This document shows positions 1 through 6,592 of a stretch of DNA of 32,517 bases, piece by piece. The translations under genes were made by a program, and so were the position numbers. The stretch's first letter is position 1; each line of letters starts with the position of its first letter. Source of the DNA: a virus (taxonomy: Duplodnaviria > Heunggongvirae > Uroviricota > Caudoviricetes); the IMG/VR virus record IMGVR_UViG_2718218100_000008; one strand, 5' to 3'. The notes under the pieces are model-generated. The model was not told where the DNA came from. It worked only from the letters and a program-made list of their open reading frames with translations, and searched no databases.

Positions 1-1143
1 CTATGCTGTTTTGATATCTACGATAATCCAGTCTTTACCACGATCATCATTGTATCGGTCGGTCATTTTTCTGGATTTATGACCTAACAACTTTTGCGTA
101 TCCAGACCCTGTTCCCGATATAACCGTTCTGACAGAGATCGCTGCTCATGAAATGTGGGCGCAGTTCCTTGCTCCCATTTTATGCCACATTTTTCCCTGG
201 CCTTTTTAAAAGCCGTTGTAAGAGTATTTGCAGACACCTGGTCTCCTCTGTTTGCTTGAGAGGTAGTGTGACGGTAATGGACCAGATATTTACTAACAAC
301 AGCATCCCTGCACTGAGATATAACTTCACGAAGGGTAATATTCAGAGCATCGCATTTCAGGTTAAGCGGAATAGCAAGTTTTGAACCGGTTTTTTCCTGA
401 GTAATGTGCAACATGTCGTCCCAGATATCAGAGAATTTCAAATTGCAGATATCGCTTAAACGTTGTCCAGTGACAAGAGCAAGTAGCATCCCGCATTTTA
501 AATAGGGCTGCCGTCTGCTTACGCTGTCAAATATTGCCTGCCATTCGGGCAGTGATAATCTTTGGCGGTTTACTCGATTTCGCGGTTGTTTTGTTGCCTG
601 CGCTGGGTTAAATCCTGGCGGAACATGTCCTGCGTGTTGTGCTTCTTTGAAGACGTCGATCAACACCATTCTCACGACTTGCGCCATCCTGTTATGACCT
701 TCAGCCTTTACAGCATCAATTATTTCGGCAATATCAAGTGCGGTAATATCCTTGAGGTGTTGCATTCCACAATGCTCACGGAAAAGACGGATGGGTTTGC
801 CTTTTTGCCGATAGGAGTTGGGTCTTAGTTCATTATGTTGCAGCCTGTCCTCCTGGATAGAATTATATTTATCAAGCCATTCTGTCACCGTAATGTCTGA
901 GCGCCTGCCTTTCATTCTTTCCAGACGCTCATTGACGCTTAATATTTGTCGGGTACGTTGTTCAGCAATAATGGTATTTGCTTCAGTAGCAACTTGTTTT
1001 GCTTCATTCTCATCAGTTCCTAAGCTATGAAAACGACCGGATAGTGGATGTTTGTATTGCCAATATACCTTTCCGGTTCGCTTATCTAATTTGCAATATA
1101 AATTGGGTATAGAGATTTTGTGAGATCGGGGGCTAGCAGCCAT
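1..1143 (-). CDS. int: Phage tyrosine integrase (site-specific recombinase), complete; stop codon at window positions 1-3
   Basis: 380-aa ORF; C-terminal catalytic region shows the H-x-x-R (TFHEQRSLSERLY) and terminal Tyr (KSRKMTDRY) pattern of tyrosine recombinases; 11-bp overlap with the upstream excisionase-like ORF; sits at the prophage end. Confidence 0.9.
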   Translation of the reverse strand: MAASPRSHKISIPNLYCKLDKRTGKVYWQYKHPLSGRFHSLGTDENEAKQVATEANTIIAEQRTRQILSVNERLERMKGRRSDITVTEWLDKYNSIQEDRLQHNELRPNSYRQKGKPIRLFREHCGMQHLKDITALDIAEIIDAVKAEGHNRMAQVVRMVLIDVFKEAQHAGHVPPGFNPAQATKQPRNRVNRQRLSLPEWQAIFDSVSRRQPYLKCGMLLALVTGQRLSDICNLKFSDIWDDMLHITQEKTGSKLAIPLNLKCDALNITLREVISQCRDAVVSKYLVHYRHTTSQANRGDQVSANTLTTAFKKAREKCGIKWEQGTAPTFHEQRSLSERLYREQGLDTQKLLGHKSRKMTDRYNDDRGKDWIIVDIKTA

Positions 1144-1369
1144 CAGCGATTATCCGTTGGAGTTTTGGGTTTGCGTTTATTGGGAGTTGCGGTTCTGCAA
1201 GCGTTCCTACAAAACGGGAATTTCGGTCAATCATCCAGTAGCGACCAACTTTTATAGCGGGTGGGGCCATCATTTTCCCTTGCGCGTATTTTTTCAGAAC
1301 TCGCTCACTTGGTGCTAAGTCCCCAAATTCTTCTTTAGCCCAGTCCCGTAAAGTGATTAGTCGAGACAT
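1133..1369 (-). CDS. xis: Excisionase-like small DNA-binding protein
   Basis: 78-aa ORF directly upstream of and overlapping int on the same strand, the classic xis-int arrangement; family assignment from recalled similarity to lambdoid prophage excisionases. Confidence 0.7.
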   Translation of the reverse strand: MSRLITLRDWAKEEFGDLAPSERVLKKYAQGKMMAPPAIKVGRYWMIDRNSRFVGTLAEPQLPINANPKLQRIIADGC

Positions 1370-1472: not shown

Positions 1473-2297
1473 ATGCTGAGAAATGCAGTATTGAATTTAT
1501 CAATTTTTCACCAGCTTCTGGTCTTTCTGGCTGTCATGCGCAAAACATATGGCTTTAATAAAAAACTGGATTGGGTTAGCAACGAGCAACTTTCCGAATT
1601 AACCGGGATATTGCCGCACAAGTGTTCTGCTGCAAAAAGTGTTCTGGTAAAGCGTGGGATTTTTATTCAGAGCGGGCGGAATACCGGCATTAATAATGTG
1701 GTCAGTGAATGGTCAACATTACCCGAATCAGGTAAGAAAAATAAAGTTTACCTGAAAGAGGTAAATTTACCTGAATCAGGTAAAAAAAGTTTACCCAAAT
1801 CAGGTAAAGGCGTTTACCCGAATCAGGTAAACACAAAAGACAAACTAACAAAAGACAATATAAAACCTTTTTCGTCCGAGAATTCTGGCGAATCCTCTGA
1901 CCAACCAGAAAACGATCTTCCTGTGGTGAAACCGGATGCTGCAATTCAGAGCGGCAGCAAGTGGGGGACAGCAGAAGACCTGACCGCCGCAGAGTGGATG
2001 TTTGACATGGTGAAGACCATCGCGCCATCAGCCAGAAAACCGAATTTTGCAGGGTGGGCTAACGATATCCGCCTGATGCGTGAACGTGACGGACGTAACC
2101 ACCGCGACATGTGCGTGCTGTTCCGCTGGGCATGCCAGGACAACTTCTGGTCCGGTAACGTGCTAAGTCCGGCCAAACTCCGCGACAAGTGGACCCAGCT
2201 CGAAATCAACCGTAACAAGCAACAGGCAGGCATGATAGCCAGCAAACCAAAACTCGACCTGACAAACACTGACTGGATTTACGGGGTGGATTTATGA
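1473..2297 (+). CDS. O: Replication initiation protein O; C-terminal half matches lambda O as recalled, N-terminal iteron-binding part diverged and apparently shortened
   Basis: 274-aa ORF; C-terminus (TKDNIKP...NFAGWANDIRLMRERDGRNHRDMCVLFRWACQDNFWSGNVLSPAKLRDKWTQLEINRNKQQAG...TDWIYGVDL) matches lambda O; an in-frame TGA at 1449-1451 prevents any upstream extension; stop overlaps the P start (ATGA). Confidence 0.85.
   Translation: MLRNAVLNLSIFHQLLVFLAVMRKTYGFNKKLDWVSNEQLSELTGILPHKCSAAKSVLVKRGIFIQSGRNTGINNVVSEWSTLPESGKKNKVYLKEVNLPESGKKSLPKSGKGVYPNQVNTKDKLTKDNIKPFSSENSGESSDQPENDLPVVKPDAAIQSGSKWGTAEDLTAAEWMFDMVKTIAPSARKPNFAGWANDIRLMRERDGRNHRDMCVLFRWACQDNFWSGNVLSPAKLRDKWTQLEINRNKQQAGMIASKPKLDLTNTDWIYGVDL
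1719..1831. repeat. Replication origin iterons: five direct repeats of a ~19-bp palindromic unit (TTTACC-N7-GGTAAA) inside the O gene, followed by an A/T-rich block (1832-1870)
   Basis: Repeat copies read at 1719-1735, 1747-1765, 1766-1784, 1790-1808 and 1813-1831; lambdoid origins are known to lie inside O as iterons followed by an AT-rich unwinding region. Confidence 0.8.
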
Positions 2298-2995
2298 AAA
2301 ACATCGCCGCACAGATGGTTAACTTTGACCGTGAGCAGATGCGTCGGATCGCCAACAACATGCCGGAACAGTACGACGAAAAGCCGCAGGTACAGCAGGT
2401 AGCGCAGATCATCAACGGTGTGTTCAGCCAGTTACTGGCAACTTTCCCGGCGAGTCTGGCTAACCGTGACCAGAACGAACTGAACGAAATCCGCCGCCAG
2501 TGGGTTCTGGCTTTCCGGGAAAACGGGATCACCACAATGGAACAGGTTAACGCAGGAATGCGCGTAGCCCGTCGGCAGAATCGACCATTTCTGCCATCAC
2601 CCGGGCAGTTTGTTGCATGGTGCCGGGAAGAAGCATCCGTTATCGCCGGACTGCCAAACGTCAGCGAGCTGGTTGATATGGTTTACGAGTATTGCCGGAA
2701 GCGTGGCCTGTATCCGGATGCAGAGTCTTATCCGTGGAAATCGAACGCGCATTACTGGTTGGTTACCAACTTGTACCAGAACATGCGGGCCAATGCGCTG
2801 ACTGACGCGGAATTACGGCGCAAGGCTGCCGATGAACTGACCTGTATGACAGCGCGAATTAACCGTGGTGAGACGATACCTGAACCAGTAAAACAACTTC
2901 CTGTTATGGGCGGTAGACCTCTAAATCGTGCACAGGCTCTGGCGAAGATCGCAGAAATTAAAGCTAAGTTCGGACTGAAAGGAGCAAGTGTATGA
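2294..2995 (+). CDS. P: Replication protein P (DnaB helicase loader)
   Basis: 233-aa ORF matching lambda P along its length as recalled (MKNIAAQMVNFDREQMRRIANNMPEQYDEKPQVQQ...KAKFGLKGASV); ATGA overlap with O. Confidence 0.95.
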   Translation: MKNIAAQMVNFDREQMRRIANNMPEQYDEKPQVQQVAQIINGVFSQLLATFPASLANRDQNELNEIRRQWVLAFRENGITTMEQVNAGMRVARRQNRPFLPSPGQFVAWCREEASVIAGLPNVSELVDMVYEYCRKRGLYPDAESYPWKSNAHYWLVTNLYQNMRANALTDAELRRKAADELTCMTARINRGETIPEPVKQLPVMGGRPLNRAQALAKIAEIKAKFGLKGASV

Positions 2996-3294
2996 CGGGC
3001 AAAGAGGCAATTATTCATTACCTGGGGACGCATAAGAGCTTCTGTGCACAGGACGTTGCCGCGGTAACAGGTGCAACCGTAACCAGCATAAATCAGGCTG
3101 CGGCTAAAATGGCGCGGGCAGGAATCCTGGTCGTTGATGGTAAGGTCTGGCGAACGGTGTATTACCGGTTCGCTACCAGAGAAGAACGGGAAGGAAAGGT
3201 GAGCACGAATCTGATTTTTAAGGAGTGTCGCCAGAGTGCCGCGATGAAACGGGTATTGAGGGTATATAAAAGAACATCAATGGGTACACAATGA
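2992..3294 (+). CDS. ren: Ren protein with a divergent C-terminal tail
   Basis: 100-aa ORF; the first ~85 residues match lambda Ren (MTGKEAIIHYLGTH...FATREEREGK...KECRQSAAMKRVL), after which the sequence diverges at the edge of the emrE island; ATGA overlap with P. Confidence 0.8.
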   Translation: MTGKEAIIHYLGTHKSFCAQDVAAVTGATVTSINQAAAKMARAGILVVDGKVWRTVYYRFATREEREGKVSTNLIFKECRQSAAMKRVLRVYKRTSMGTQ

Positions 3295-3311
3295 TGAAAC
3301 AGGTGAGTTGA

Positions 3312-3346
3312 GTTCAAACTGTAGTACAATTCTCTCCAGTTTGAAC
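3312..3346. promoter_or_regulatory. Perfect 10-bp inverted repeat (GTTCAAACTG / CAGTTTGAAC, 15-nt spacer) about 15 bp upstream of the emrE start
   Basis: Read directly from the sequence; candidate operator or RNA hairpin; no T-run follows, so not a typical intrinsic terminator. Confidence 0.3.
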
Positions 3347-3361
3347 AGGAAAGAATATGTT

Positions 3362-3694
3362 ATGAACCCTTATATTTATCTTGGTGGTGCAATACTTGCA
3401 GAGGTCATTGGTACAACCTTAATGAAGTTTTCAGAAGGTTTTACACGGTTATGGCCATCTGTTGGTACAATTATTTGTTATTGTGCATCATTCTGGTTAT
3501 TAGCTCAGACGCTGGCTTATATTCCTACAGGGATTGCTTATGCTATCTGGTCAGGAGTCGGTATTGTCCTGATTAGCTTACTATCATGGGGGTTTTTCGG
3601 CCAACGGCTGGACCTGCCAGCCGTTATAGGCATGATGTTGATTTGTGCCGGTGTGTTGGTTATTAATTTATTGTCACGAAGCACACCACATTAA
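3362..3694 (+). CDS. emrE: Small multidrug resistance (SMR) efflux transporter EmrE
   Basis: 110-aa product MNPYIYLGGAILAEVIGTTLMKFSEGF...LLSRSTPH matches E. coli EmrE as recalled; four hydrophobic helices; first in-frame ATG chosen at 3362 (the ORF-track start at 3308 is an upstream extension). Confidence 0.9.
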   Translation: MNPYIYLGGAILAEVIGTTLMKFSEGFTRLWPSVGTIICYCASFWLLAQTLAYIPTGIAYAIWSGVGIVLISLLSWGFFGQRLDLPAVIGMMLICAGVLVINLLSRSTPH

Positions 3695-3938
3695 AAATAA
3701 TTTCTTTTAAAAGACTGCAATATGGCGGTTCATATCTTTACATGGGCCGCTTTTGTTAATGTTTTTAGTTTTTGTGTATTCTTTTGTGCCTTCAAGATTA
3801 TTGCGTAAGCAAATTGCAATACGATTATTGTTGTATATTCAAGATAGTGTGATCGTAATTGTCTTTTTAAATAAAAATTAAACAAAAATTATATCTCACC
3901 ACTAAGGTTTATAAAAGCATAAGTTAGCAGGTGTCACC

Positions 3939-5465
3939 ATGAAAAAAGCCATAGCATATATGCGATTTTCATCACCAGGTCAGATGTCTGGCGACTCATT
4001 AAACCGACAGAGAAGACTTATTGCTGAATGGTTAAAGGTAAATAGTGATTATTATCTTGATACCATAACATATGAAGATTTAGGATTAAGTGCATTCAAA
4101 GGAAAGCATGCACAATCAGGAGCTTTTTCGGAATTTTTAGATGCTATAGAGCATGGTTATATATTGCCAGGAACTACATTGTTAGTTGAAAGTCTGGACA
4201 GACTTTCAAGAGAAAAAGTCGGTGAAGCGATTGAACGTCTGAAATTGATTTTGAATCACGGTATTGATGTTATAACTCTTTGCGACAATACAGTCTATAA
4301 TATTGACTCTTTGAATGAGCCATATTCATTAATAAAAGCCATACTTATAGCACAAAGGGCAAATGAAGAAAGCGAGATAAAGTCAAGTCGGGTTAAATTA
4401 TCATGGAAGAAAAAACGGCAGGATGCACTGGAATCAGGTACGATTATGACGGCGTCTTGTCCGAGATGGCTCTCCTTAGATGACAAAAGAACGGCTTTTG
4501 TTCCAGACCCCGACAGGGTGAAAACTATTGAGCTAATTTTTAAACTCAGGATGGAAAGGCGCTCATTGAATGCAATAGCCAAGTATTTAAATGATCATGC
4601 TGTAAAGAATTTCTCAGGAAAAGAAAGTGCATGGGGGCCTTCTGTAATTGAAAAATTATTAGCGAATAAAGCTCTGATAGGTATATGCGTACCTTCATAT
4701 CGTGCAAGAGGGAAAGGGATAAGTGAAATCGCTGGCTATTATCCCAGAGTCATATCAGATGATTTGTTTTACGCTGTACAGGAAATTCGGTTGGCACCTT
4801 TTGGTATTAGCAATAGTAGCAAGAATCCTATGCTAATAAATCTACTTCGAACAGTTATGAAGTGTGAGGCTTGTGGTAATACCATGATTGTTCATGCGGT
4901 ATCTGGAAGTTTGCATGGCTATTATGTTTGTCCGATGAGAAGATTACATCGATGTGACAGGCCATCAATAAAGAGAGATTTGGTTGATTATAATATCATT
5001 AATGAATTGCTTTTTAATTGTAGCAAAATTCAACCAGTTGAAAACAAGAAAGATGCTAATGAAACTTTAGAGTTAAAAATTATTGAGCTTCAGATGAAAA
5101 TTAATAATTTAATCGTTGCATTGTCTGTCGCGCCTGAAGTTACCGCTATAGCAGAGAAAATAAGACTATTAGATAAGGAATTACGAAGAGCTTTGGTATC
5201 ATTGAAAACTTTGAAGAGTAAAGGTGTAAATTCATTCAGTGATTTTTATGCTATTGACTTAACCAGTAAAAATGGACGAGAGTTATGCCGTACACTTGCC
5301 TATAAAATATTCGAAAAAATCATAATTAATACGGATAATAAAACCTGTGATATCTATTTTATGAATGGCATTGTTTTTAAACACTATCCTTTAATGAAAG
5401 TAATATCCGCCCAGCAGGCGATAAGTGCTCTCAAATATATGGTTGATGGTGAGGTTTATTTTTGA
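3939..5465 (+). CDS. ybcK: Large serine recombinase (resolvase/invertase-type N-terminal catalytic domain plus recombinase domain and zinc ribbon)
   Basis: 508-aa ORF; N-terminal motif AIAYMRFSSPGQ with candidate catalytic Ser; later Cys cluster CEACGN...YYVCPMRRLHRCD typical of large serine recombinase zinc ribbons; AT-rich codon usage; same emrE-adjacent position as ybcK in DLP12. Confidence 0.85.
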   Translation: MKKAIAYMRFSSPGQMSGDSLNRQRRLIAEWLKVNSDYYLDTITYEDLGLSAFKGKHAQSGAFSEFLDAIEHGYILPGTTLLVESLDRLSREKVGEAIERLKLILNHGIDVITLCDNTVYNIDSLNEPYSLIKAILIAQRANEESEIKSSRVKLSWKKKRQDALESGTIMTASCPRWLSLDDKRTAFVPDPDRVKTIELIFKLRMERRSLNAIAKYLNDHAVKNFSGKESAWGPSVIEKLLANKALIGICVPSYRARGKGISEIAGYYPRVISDDLFYAVQEIRLAPFGISNSSKNPMLINLLRTVMKCEACGNTMIVHAVSGSLHGYYVCPMRRLHRCDRPSIKRDLVDYNIINELLFNCSKIQPVENKKDANETLELKIIELQMKINNLIVALSVAPEVTAIAEKIRLLDKELRRALVSLKTLKSKGVNSFSDFYAIDLTSKNGRELCRTLAYKIFEKIIINTDNKTCDIYFMNGIVFKHYPLMKVISAQQAISALKYMVDGEVYF

Positions 5466-5818
5466 GTAATAATCACTTTTTCAACCGTGCTATGGTATGA
5501 AAGTAAAGTAACTACTATGATATTAACTATCGAGCAAGAATATCCCCAGGCACTCAACAGGGCGCAGGTCAACGTGAATCGGTCATGACACGACACCGAT
5601 TTTGCGGAATCAATGTTGCTTATGAATACAACATCCCGCTTAGTACATGTTCAACACATCAGCAAATTTTGAACTGGGTGTGGCACTTAACTGAAAAAAC
5701 ATGGATGACACAAAATGTTACTCGTCGCTTCATTGAAGTAGCTTGTGGATATCACAAGCTAGACTATCGCCAATGATATTCAATTTTTGATTTTTTAGTA
5801 TCAACCTTCCATAATAAT

Positions 5819-5847
5819 GTCACCGGAGCTTGAACAACTCCGGTGAC
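5819..5847. other. Perfect 10-bp inverted repeat GTCACCGGAG-N9-CTCCGGTGAC (strong hairpin or dimeric protein-binding site)
   Basis: Read directly from the sequence; lies in the unassigned spacer between the recombinase gene and ninB; flanking T-runs are weak, so terminator function is uncertain. Confidence 0.4.
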
Positions 5848-5871
5848 TTCTGCGCATTTAAGGGGACTTAA

Positions 5872-5970
5872 ATGCGACCACAATCTGAACTCCTTACCTT
5901 GTCACAGATGCAGAAATGCACCTGCGATGTCTTGCATCCAGCGTTTGATCTCTGCGGAGGTGAAGCGTGA
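5872..5970 (+). CDS. Small ORF (32 aa, [32 protein letters not shown]), possibly ylcH-like
   Basis: ATG preceded by an AAGGGGA Shine-Dalgarno-like motif; stop overlaps the GTG start of ninB/ybcN (GTGA); too short to judge by sequence alone. Confidence 0.3.
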
Positions 5971-6422
5971 ACCTCCCACAAGATGGCATCAAATTACATC
6001 GCGGTAACTTCACCGCTGTCGGTCAGCAGATCCAGACTTATCTGGAAGACGGCAAATGCTTTCGCATGGTGCTTAAACCGTGGCGCGAGAGACGCAGTCT
6101 TTCCCAGAATGCACTCAGCCACATGTGGTACAGCGAAATCAGTGAATACCTCATCAGCAGGGGGAAATCGTTCGCTACTTCAGCATGGGTAAAAGATGCT
6201 CTCAAACACACATACCTCGGTTATGAAACCAAGGACCTGGTTGATGTCGTAACCGGCGAAATCACTACTATCCAGTCGTTACGCCATACCTCCGATCTTG
6301 GTACCGGAGAGATGTATGTCTTCCTGTGTAAGGTTGAAGCCTGGGCGATGAATATTGGCTGCCACCTGACTATTCCACAGAGCTGCGAGTTCCAGCTGCT
6401 GCGTGACAAGCAGGAGGCGTAA
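5967..6422 (+). CDS. ybcN: NinB (Orf) family recombination protein, YbcN-like
   Basis: 151-aa ORF with GTG start; contains the [13 protein letters not shown] motif that resembles lambda NinB; position at the head of the nin block. Confidence 0.8.
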
Positions 6423-6592
6423 TGGCTACACCGCTTATTCGTGTCATGAACGGACACATCTACAAAGTACCAAATCGTCGTAAGCGTAAACCTGAGCTGA
6501 AGCCATCCGAAATACCAACACTGCTCGGATATACCGCCAGCCTGGTTGATAAAAAATGGTTGCGACTGGCAGCAAGGAGGAATCATGGCTGA
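6422..6592 (+). CDS. ninE: NinE family small basic protein (56 aa; below the ORF-track length cutoff)
   Basis: Translated by hand: [56 protein letters not shown]; TAATG overlap with ybcN and ATGGCTGA overlap with ybcO. Confidence 0.7.
   Translation: MATPLIRVMNGHIYKVPNRRKRKPELKPSEIPTLLGYTASLVDKKWLRLAARRNHG

Follow-up and report, generated by a model that had tools for sequence, protein, structure and literature searches.

The emrE-ybcK segment of a defective lambdoid prophage as a probable stack of accessory modules in the ren/nin slot

Gene content and boundaries of the cargo segment

We analyzed a 32,517-nucleotide stretch of viral DNA (IMG/VR record IMGVR_UViG_2718218100_000008; Caudoviricetes), hereafter called the window, in which the efflux pump gene emrE lies beside ybcK, encoding a large serine recombinase (LSR), between the phage backbone genes ren and ybcN. 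The window is a lambdoid prophage, 100% identical to Escherichia coli O157:H7-type chromosomes, where it lies next to icd. An earlier note, made from the sequence alone, had proposed that emrE was delivered into the phage as a recombinase-mobilized unit, and had pointed to a palindrome at each edge of the inserted island. The features of the segment and its flanks are as follows.

2992-3294, plus strand: ren, a backbone gene whose last ~8 codons and stop codon are on the cargo side of the junction
3258-3292, no strand: left backbone/cargo junction, with the backbone ending at 3258-3267 and the emrE module starting at 3285-3292 (alignment and megablast/blastn end-points)
3312-3346, plus strand: emrE leader dyad or hairpin, 3-15 nt 5' of the AGGAAAG ribosome-binding site; belongs to the emrE module and marks no island end
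3362-3694, plus strand: emrE, small multidrug resistance (SMR)-family multidrug/quaternary-cation efflux pump, 110 aa
3724-3756, plus strand: intrinsic terminator 3' of emrE, a hairpin followed by a T-run (terminator scan)
3753-3881, plus strand: ylcJ remnant, a small-protein open reading frame (ORF); the region is the untranslated leader of ybcK
3939-5465, plus strand: ybcK, intact LSR gene, 508 aa
5466-5531, plus strand: ybcK 3' tail, 66 bp, common to all non-K-12 arrangements; right end of the emrE-ybcK linkage block
5532-5784, plus strand: third, variable cargo slot, 253 bp, with a 37-bp fragment of a P22AR-C (antirepressor C-terminal) gene and a 63-aa ORF
5785-5966, plus strand: phage-82-type nin leader, conserved backbone, folding z-score -6.2
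5967-6422, plus strand: ybcN (phage 82 orf151), backbone, positional counterpart of lambda ninB (RefSeq annotation)

Comparison across lambdoid prophages gave constant edges on both sides. On the left, Ren matches lambda Ren at 90% identity as far as residue 92 of 100, correcting the earlier placement of the end of similarity near codon 85, and DNA homology to lambdoids with other or no cargo stops at 3258-3267 (megablast, blastn, and alignment). On the right, homology to phage 82, to Perceval, and to three further loci compared (L004, L006, and L007) always starts at 5785. Since this start is constant whatever the cargo, 5785-5966 is backbone. Lambda-like synteny had been reported to resume at ninB near 5967; ybcN does start at 5967, but the backbone resumes 182 bp upstream of it, and the right palindrome is therefore not an edge. 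The ybcN product matched Pfam NinB at E=1e-4, slightly below the gathering score. In lambda, just 73 bp separate ren from ninB. The slot between ren and ybcN is variable, holding unrelated genes in other prophages (L006 carries unrelated cargo), and the cargo described here is absent from lambda, phage 82, L006, and others, although the flanks are conserved.

The cargo span 3270-5784 is AT-rich, with a GC content of 0.35-0.43 compared with 0.50-0.53 for the backbone. Along the window, GC was 0.50-0.57 at 2000-3150, fell to 0.30-0.42 at 3150-5850, and was ~0.50 again from 5850. The sliding-window and codon composition analyses that the earlier note had called for uphold its AT-rich island between ren and the nin genes: GC was 0.397 for the emrE module (3285-3702), 0.346 for the ybcK module (3703-5531), and 0.427 for the segment 5532-5784, against 0.530 for P and 0.507 for ybcN, and GC at third codon positions (GC3), at 0.573 in P and 0.599 in ybcN, was 0.351 in emrE and 0.287 in ybcK. 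The two compositional grades of the emrE and ybcK modules suggest separate histories. With its patchy presence between conserved backbone genes and its deviating base composition, the cargo is probably of the moron type.

The emrE-ybcK block is already known: its annotation in the K-12 prophage DLP12 is decades old, it is annotated in RefSeq, and it occurs in functional phages. The likeness to the DLP12 pair noted from the sequence holds, at 97.4% DNA identity between the window and the DLP12-type arrangement over 2900-5504. DLP12 and the phages Perceval, 4A7, Turner, 1W, and 3W have the same genes, order, spacing, and left junction, with 97-99% DNA identity over this interval, and the genes of the DLP12-type pair carry the annotations 'multidrug efflux SMR transporter EmrE' and 'recombinase family protein / Large serine recombinase'. 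DLP12 differs from the window prophage in its location (argU, versus icd with an e14/phage-21-like integrase). Relative to DLP12, the window lacks the whole immunity and early-left region, has lost the ylcJ start codon, and carries a 253-bp remnant with the 63-aa ORF in place of ybcL-ybcM. Other lambdoid morons (bor, lom, and other ren/nin cargo) resemble the segment in patchy presence, position between backbone genes, and lower GC, and emrE has a terminator of its own; a recombinase-encoding module is unusual cargo among them.

The emrE, ylcJ, and ybcK genes

The window EmrE is 98% identical to the K-12-type protein and is annotated emrE in RefSeq. It matched Pfam PF00893 (Multi_Drug_Res; E=2e-35, residues 3-94) and PHROG 1395, and Glu14 is present, in 'AILAEV'. 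In length, family signature, and Glu14, the predicted protein agrees with the SMR family. The terminator that follows emrE had a folding z-score of -3.6, and its stem varies with compensatory changes among the window, K-12-type, and Perceval alleles.

The ylcJ ATG sits in the 3' arm of this terminator hairpin. The remnant still matched Pfam PF23688 (YlcJ-like, E=4.5e-19); however, a 10-bp deletion at 3741-3760, relative to the K-12, Perceval, and L101 alleles, separates the reading frame from that ATG, and YlcJ is therefore probably not produced from this window.

The third gene encodes the 508-aa recombinase, for which an intact catalytic Ser motif and zinc-ribbon Cys cluster had been claimed. 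Both are borne out: all three LSR domains were detected (Resolvase PF00239 at 4-161, E=5e-19; Recombinase PF07508 at 191-284; Zn_ribbon_recom PF13408 at 302-357), and R9, S11, Q15, D87, R88, R91, C309, C312, C331, and C339 were invariant in an alignment of 25 homologues with 32-97% identity, so that the catalytic site aligns as intact rather than inactive. A single-sequence search with YbcK against the PDB gave no match, and a family profile was required; this profile matched SPbeta SprA (9dxd; residues 143-516) over its recombinase, zinc-ribbon, and coiled-coil regions, as well as the catalytic domain of TP901-1 integrase (3bvp). The profile alignment to SprA 9dxd covers 364-471, including the SprA coiled-coil region, and sequence identity of YbcK to solved LSRs is low (profile E=9e-12). 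The full-length 508-aa cluster had 6,144 member sequences. Among E. coli alleles, dN/dS was 0.06-0.10 at dS 0.12-0.18, and it was 0.04-0.10 in Ewingella and Pantoea pairs, values that indicate strong purifying selection on YbcK. The 66 bp 3' of ybcK differ from Perceval at one position (dS 0.13); we considered constraint on this tail and rejected it in favor of mosaic recombination tracts along the gene.

Several observations could be taken to mean that ybcK is a decaying, functionless relic that hitch-hikes beside a selected emrE. The gene is silenced in K-12 by a Rho/NusG-dependent terminator within its leader (PMC4150792). K-12 YbcK has been counted among 16 site-specific recombinases, and ybcK mutants had no reported phenotype in one recombinase screen (PMC5426353). 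Disrupted copies also exist: strain H1827/12 has an internal stop, FDAARGOS_403 has a deletion that fuses emrE to ybcK, and in O157:H7 strain F7386 (NZ_CP038360.1) the gene is split by an insertion of the IS3-family element IS1203. Despite these individual copies, the low dN/dS in E. coli and in the other genera, together with the invariance of the catalytic and zinc-binding residues down to 32% identity, argues that ybcK is no decaying relic, and the size of the full-length cluster points the same way; we regard the relic explanation as scarcely credible. Our literature search found no function assigned to YbcK, and PADLOC matched none of YbcK, the 63-aa ORF product, and YlcJ to a defense system.

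Linkage of emrE and ybcK in E. coli

The emrE-ybcK pair was present in ~1,400 of 5,426 complete E. coli genomes (about a quarter), and the functional phages Perceval, 4A7, Turner, 1W, and 3W carry it. IMG/VR held 80 contigs with an E. coli-type ybcK, 78 of which include upstream sequence, and emrE lay 245-258 bp upstream of ybcK in all 78. An 'empty' site, ren-emrE-ybcL without ybcK, was searched for with a chimeric query and found in 0 of the 5,426 complete genomes; no emrE-ybcL junction was found in phage records. The block common to all carriers ends 40-66 bp 3' of the ybcK stop codon.

Such tight linkage would be expected if emrE and ybcK formed a single mobile unit inserted by YbcK, with the palindromes as its recombination sites. 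Constant spacing and the missing empty site favor this model, as do the AT-richness of both genes, an intact recombinase under selection, and a recombinase gene that comes last in the block, within 40-66 bp of its right boundary. Against it, the pair occurred in no second context: all copies found sit between ren and the ybcN leader, and the pair was never seen outside this slot. Confinement to one slot gives no sign of transposition, and it is the reverse of a pair scattered over many unrelated contexts. LSR genes do stand beside resistance-type genes on mobile genetic elements, as ybcK stands beside emrE, in Tn4451 (TnpX), Tn5397 (TndX), and SCCmec (CcrAB). For emrE-ybcK, unlike those elements, we found neither element ends nor a second insertion site, the two genes occur together in one phage slot only, and elsewhere the YbcK recombinase family travels without the resistance gene.

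The ybcK gene is missing from one arrangement. At the fliE locus, emrE-ybcL-ybcM are contiguous, without ybcK, in 2,630 of the 5,426 complete E. coli genomes, and comparison of the fliE type with the K-12 type resolves ylcJ-ybcK as a clean 2,083-bp indel starting 8 bp 3' of the emrE stop codon. The fliE locus is ~9-10% diverged from the phage copies. In E. coli APEC E19019 (L005, 5001-7252), the fliE remnant is decayed and DLP12-like, with emrE-ybcL-ybcM, the hairpin/orf33 backbone, and then directly the quuD 3' end.

Palindromes and junction sequences

The palindromes that the earlier note placed at the island edges exist at the positions given for them. The left arms (3312-3324/3334-3346) are 13 nt long and 12/13 complementary, and the right arms (5819-5828/5838-5847) are 10/10 complementary. 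In 3000-6200, perfect inverted repeats with arms of 10 nt or more and loops of 3-15 nt numbered four, compared with 0.035 expected from 200 Markov simulations. Both palindromes are real and non-random; neither marks an island end. The left one belongs with emrE: it is kept, with 1 substitution, at the fliE locus, where emrE is present and ybcK is absent. Its RNA folding z-score was only -0.8. The right one sits 34 bp into the conserved backbone; phage 82, a prophage carrying unrelated cargo, and the remaining arrangements in the comparison all have it unchanged, and in the phage 82 record of 1996 it is labeled a 'possible regulator-binding site', 3' of putative -35/-10 signals. The only sequence common to the two is a 10-nt 'AGyTTGAACA' string (p ~0.06-0.1 versus shuffles). 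When 2900-6500 was scanned against Rfam (E<=1) for riboswitches or other known RNAs coinciding with the palindromes, the only match was one to a long noncoding RNA, at chance level.

A further perfect 10+10 nt palindrome (TTGAAAGTCT ggac AGACTTTCAA) lies within ybcK at 4186-4209. It encodes the invariant catalytic motif ESLDRLS and is probably a coincidence of codon choice.

Neither the junctions nor the palindromes resembled one another. Comparison of the pair junctions (3235-3300 versus 5466-5545), and of palindrome with palindrome, gave no significant direct or inverted similarity (p ~0.06-0.6). More broadly, significant direct or inverted repeats were absent from the junctions of emrE-ybcK, from those of the K-12-type ybcK segment, and from those of seven modules in other genera. 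As recombination sites of YbcK, the palindromes drop out of consideration, since no finding supports that role. On the refuting conditions that the earlier note itself set, the proposal that emrE was delivered as a recombinase-mobilized unit is not formally refuted, the pair having one context and the recombinase an intact catalytic site. It likewise gained no positive support: there were no related repeats at the ends, no second insertion site, and no co-occurrence of emrE with the recombinase family outside E. coli. A right palindrome that is backbone and accompanies any cargo, a left palindrome that remains with emrE when ybcK is absent, dissimilar junctions, and the absence of emrE near YbcK relatives in other genera make the single-unit model quite improbable.

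One arrangement did score above shuffles in the terminal-repeat search, the Perceval-type segment. In Perceval (L019, 41052-41100), the emrE 3' end recurs as a diverged copy ~49 nt long with a 20-nt core at 41063-41082, made up of the last ~15-17 nt of emrE and ~30 nt downstream. This copy is 2.07 kb downstream of the true end of emrE, between a P22AR-C gene fragment and a convergent alpha/beta hydrolase gene, so that the two copies flank ylcJ-ybcK and a gene fragment. We considered this repeat as an attachment core of the Campbell type, with the emrE 3' end as attB, and rejected it as general evidence: the corresponding 'repeat' of the K-12 type is no better than chance, and the two segment types have non-homologous right ends. 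The Perceval repeat is more simply read as a mosaic joint with an ancestor in which emrE stood beside the hydrolase gene.

YbcK homologues in other Enterobacterales

Full-length YbcK homologues with 40-61% identity were found in Atlantibacter, Yersinia, Erwinia, Ewingella, Pantoea, Citrobacter, and Kluyvera. Outside E. coli each one stands alone, always in an accessory position of a prophage or plasmid: 3' of tail-fiber or tail-fiber-assembly genes at prophage ends, between the replication genes and Q in lambdoid prophages, and on plasmids. Most homologues 3' of tail genes are oriented in sense with the late operon. Their neighbors are unrelated to each other (umuDC-like genes, a DNA methylase, an autotransporter, and a PilV-like gene), and neither emrE nor ylcJ was found within 10 kb of the non-E. 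coli YbcK relatives among 80 genome loci with YbcK relatives.

Pairwise comparison within a genus showed that otherwise unrelated prophages have only a 1.6-2.0 kb recombinase module in common. In Ewingella, L017 7939-9938 matches L025 and L026 at 87%; in Atlantibacter, L008 7933-9530 matches L023 at 76%; and in Pantoea, L028 matches L037 at 94%. In the three Ewingella prophages with a common module (87-93%), the sequence beyond the module is unrelated.

These solitary modules raise the alternative that the ybcK family consists of minimal LSR-only elements (~1.6-2.1 kb) hopping among co-resident Enterobacterales prophages and plasmids, the E. coli copy having landed, with ylcJ, just 3' of emrE. 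An ancestral emrE-ybcL-ybcM phage would then have received ybcK, and emrE would be a neighbor or target and not cargo. The clean indel 8 bp past the emrE stop relative to the fliE-type emrE-ybcL junction is what such an insertion would leave, and the modules common to unrelated prophages in Ewingella, Atlantibacter, and Pantoea, strong purifying selection in the company of no conserved partner gene, and the second emrE 3' end flanking ybcK in Perceval are all in keeping with it. However, no significant terminal repeats were found at module junctions in any genus examined, and the K-12-type and Perceval-type right ends are not homologous, unlike a fixed attachment arm. Module ends vary as well, by 62-236 bp upstream and 0-405 bp downstream, there is no presence/absence polymorphism within E. 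coli phage contexts, and a mosaic joint with an emrE-hydrolase ancestor would account for the Perceval repeat just as well. We consider independent hopping of ybcK unlikely.

A third alternative makes YbcK a second or alternative phage integrase, or a recently captured serine-integrase module that gives the phage a second attachment site. Its top PHROG match is the 'integrase' family phrog_95 (E=7e-120), and its architecture is of the SPbeta SprA type: YbcK has the same catalytic, recombinase, and four-Cys zinc-ribbon domains, followed by what may be a coiled-coil-like stretch, as the LSR integrases SPbeta SprA, TP901-1 Int, phiC31 Int, and Bxb1 gp35. Homologues also often lie at prophage ends beside host genes, by lepA in Erwinia and near a tmRNA gene in Atlantibacter, where the homologue (L008, 9530-10432) ends 540 bp from the tmRNA 3' end, at the prophage-host junction. 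In contrast to LSR phage integrases, E. coli ybcK does not lie at the end of a prophage and coexists with a tyrosine integrase and excisionase; the E. coli carriers examined all have it in one internal position. Because the window prophage and the functional phage Perceval both have a tyrosine integrase with excisionase, YbcK is not the integrase of this phage. No common attachment site was evident beyond the module in the three Ewingella prophages, no prophage permuted at ybcK was found, and we identified neither attP/attB nor a directionality factor for YbcK, with no repeat signature at any junction examined. A second-integrase role is very doubtful.

Two of the homologue neighborhoods have features of their own. 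In Ewingella (L017 7453-7845; L025 8100-9865; L026) and in Enterobacteriaceae isolate G50 (L024), the homologue adjoins umuD/umuC-like genes, and the UmuC-like neighbor, a translesion polymerase, has IMS, IMS_C, and DUF4113 domains. On a plasmid-like contig of Citrobacter koseri (L014, 6145-9530), the homologue and a 555-aa gene that faintly matches Shufflon_N (PilV-like) are divergently oriented, with TraD and MobA genes nearby. Recombinases adjacent to shufflon adhesins are normally of the tyrosine type.

The third cargo slot

Right of ybcK, at least five arrangements were found among the 80 viral contigs: ybcL-ybcM, and P22AR-C either alone or with the hydrolase gene, a 310-aa ORF, or the 63-aa ORF. 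The window has the P22AR-C plus 63-aa-ORF arrangement minus 228 bp, removed by a deletion between short 'ATC' microhomologies (blastn versus L101 and L007). The alpha/beta hydrolase gene also adjoins ybcN where emrE-ybcK is absent. Given this, and given that the right-side arrangements vary, the ren/ybcN slot is a stacking site for accessory genes. The 63-aa ORF (5585-5776) gave a full-length match to PHROG 2559 (E=4e-51), a family of unknown function, and it is unannotated in the RefSeq record of an identical genome.

A probable stack of accessory modules

We consider it likely that 3270-5784 is a stack of accessory ('moron') modules in the ren/phage-82-type nin slot, spread with the phage and by homologous exchange and not by YbcK transposition. 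The reading is built on the gene content, boundaries, and linkage observed at the locus, on the catalytic integrity of YbcK and the purifying selection on it, and on modularity in other genera. The first module would be emrE, which brings a leader dyad, a ribosome-binding site, and an intrinsic terminator of its own and would provide the lysogen with proton-coupled efflux of toxic cations. The second would comprise the ylcJ remnant and ybcK, a complete and, to judge from its residues, catalytically competent LSR, and the third is the variable slot, here occupied by a gene fragment and the 63-aa ORF. In E. coli, emrE and ybcK would have been inherited as one linkage block that spread with the phage and by homologous exchange among lambdoid phages, YbcK itself belonging to an Enterobacterales family of solitary recombinase genes in prophage and plasmid accessory positions.

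YbcK is best described as conserved and as a probably active recombinase that the phage carries as accessory cargo. In the lysogen, ybcK would be silent through the terminators in its leader, and N-type antitermination read-through in lytic growth would transcribe it; we infer expression by antiterminated lytic read-through because ybcK is in sense in the early-right operon and most homologues 3' of tail genes are in sense with the late operon. The product would then act on DNA sites. Activity and expression timing are thus read from conserved residues and gene orientation.

Four points weigh against the stack. First, emrE and ybcK are inseparable in E. coli phage contexts, and the independence of the modules rests on the fliE locus, on composition, and on other genera. 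Second, the ybcK-less fliE arrangement is a single event in a decayed remnant and could be a deletion instead of an insertion. Third, the sharp edges of the modules in other genera could stem equally from ordinary phage mosaicism or from self-mobility. Fourth, promoters for emrE and ybcK did not rise above chance (10 promoter-like matches versus 9.8 in the shuffled expectation), a difference from other lambdoid morons.

Reanalysis as a stack of modules recasts the island map as three modules with the backbone starting at 5785, and places a strongly conserved YbcK in a family of solitary recombinase genes scattered over prophage accessory slots. Should this family prove self-mobile, or active in lytic growth, it would add a small new chapter to phage mosaicism; self-mobility or a lytic role could also make it a source of new recombinase/attachment site pairs for genome engineering.

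The right backbone leader and the prophage setting

The remaining features lie in the nin leader and at the left end of the window.

5787-5815, plus strand: promoter-like site; the phage 82 record annotates -35 and -10 signals here
5819-5847, plus strand: hairpin 1 (the right palindrome), with an invariant 10-bp stem
5853-5876, plus strand: hairpin 2, whose stem differs from other phage-82-type phages with pairing kept by compensatory changes
5872-5970, plus strand: orf33-like ORF of 32 codons, like phage 82 orf33
1-1143, minus strand: tyrosine integrase, e14/phage-21-like
1133-1369, minus strand: excisionase

The maintained pairing of hairpin 2 suggests a functional structure, and the features in 5785-5880 may represent a tR2-equivalent terminator or an operator region. 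In other phages, the counterpart of the promoter-like site overlaps a near-perfect dyad, TTGATTTT..AAAATCAA.

At the left end (1133-2297), the excisionase gene borders directly on a replication gene O that is truncated at its N terminus. The early-left and immunity region (exo/bet/gam, N, cI, cro, and cII) is therefore entirely missing, and the prophage is defective. The order after truncated O is P, ren, emrE, the ylcJ remnant, ybcK, a short spacer, and ybcN, followed by ninE, ybcO, rusA, ylcG, Q, and the lysis genes. The remainder of the window consists of lambda-like head and tail genes, and the late genes look complete.

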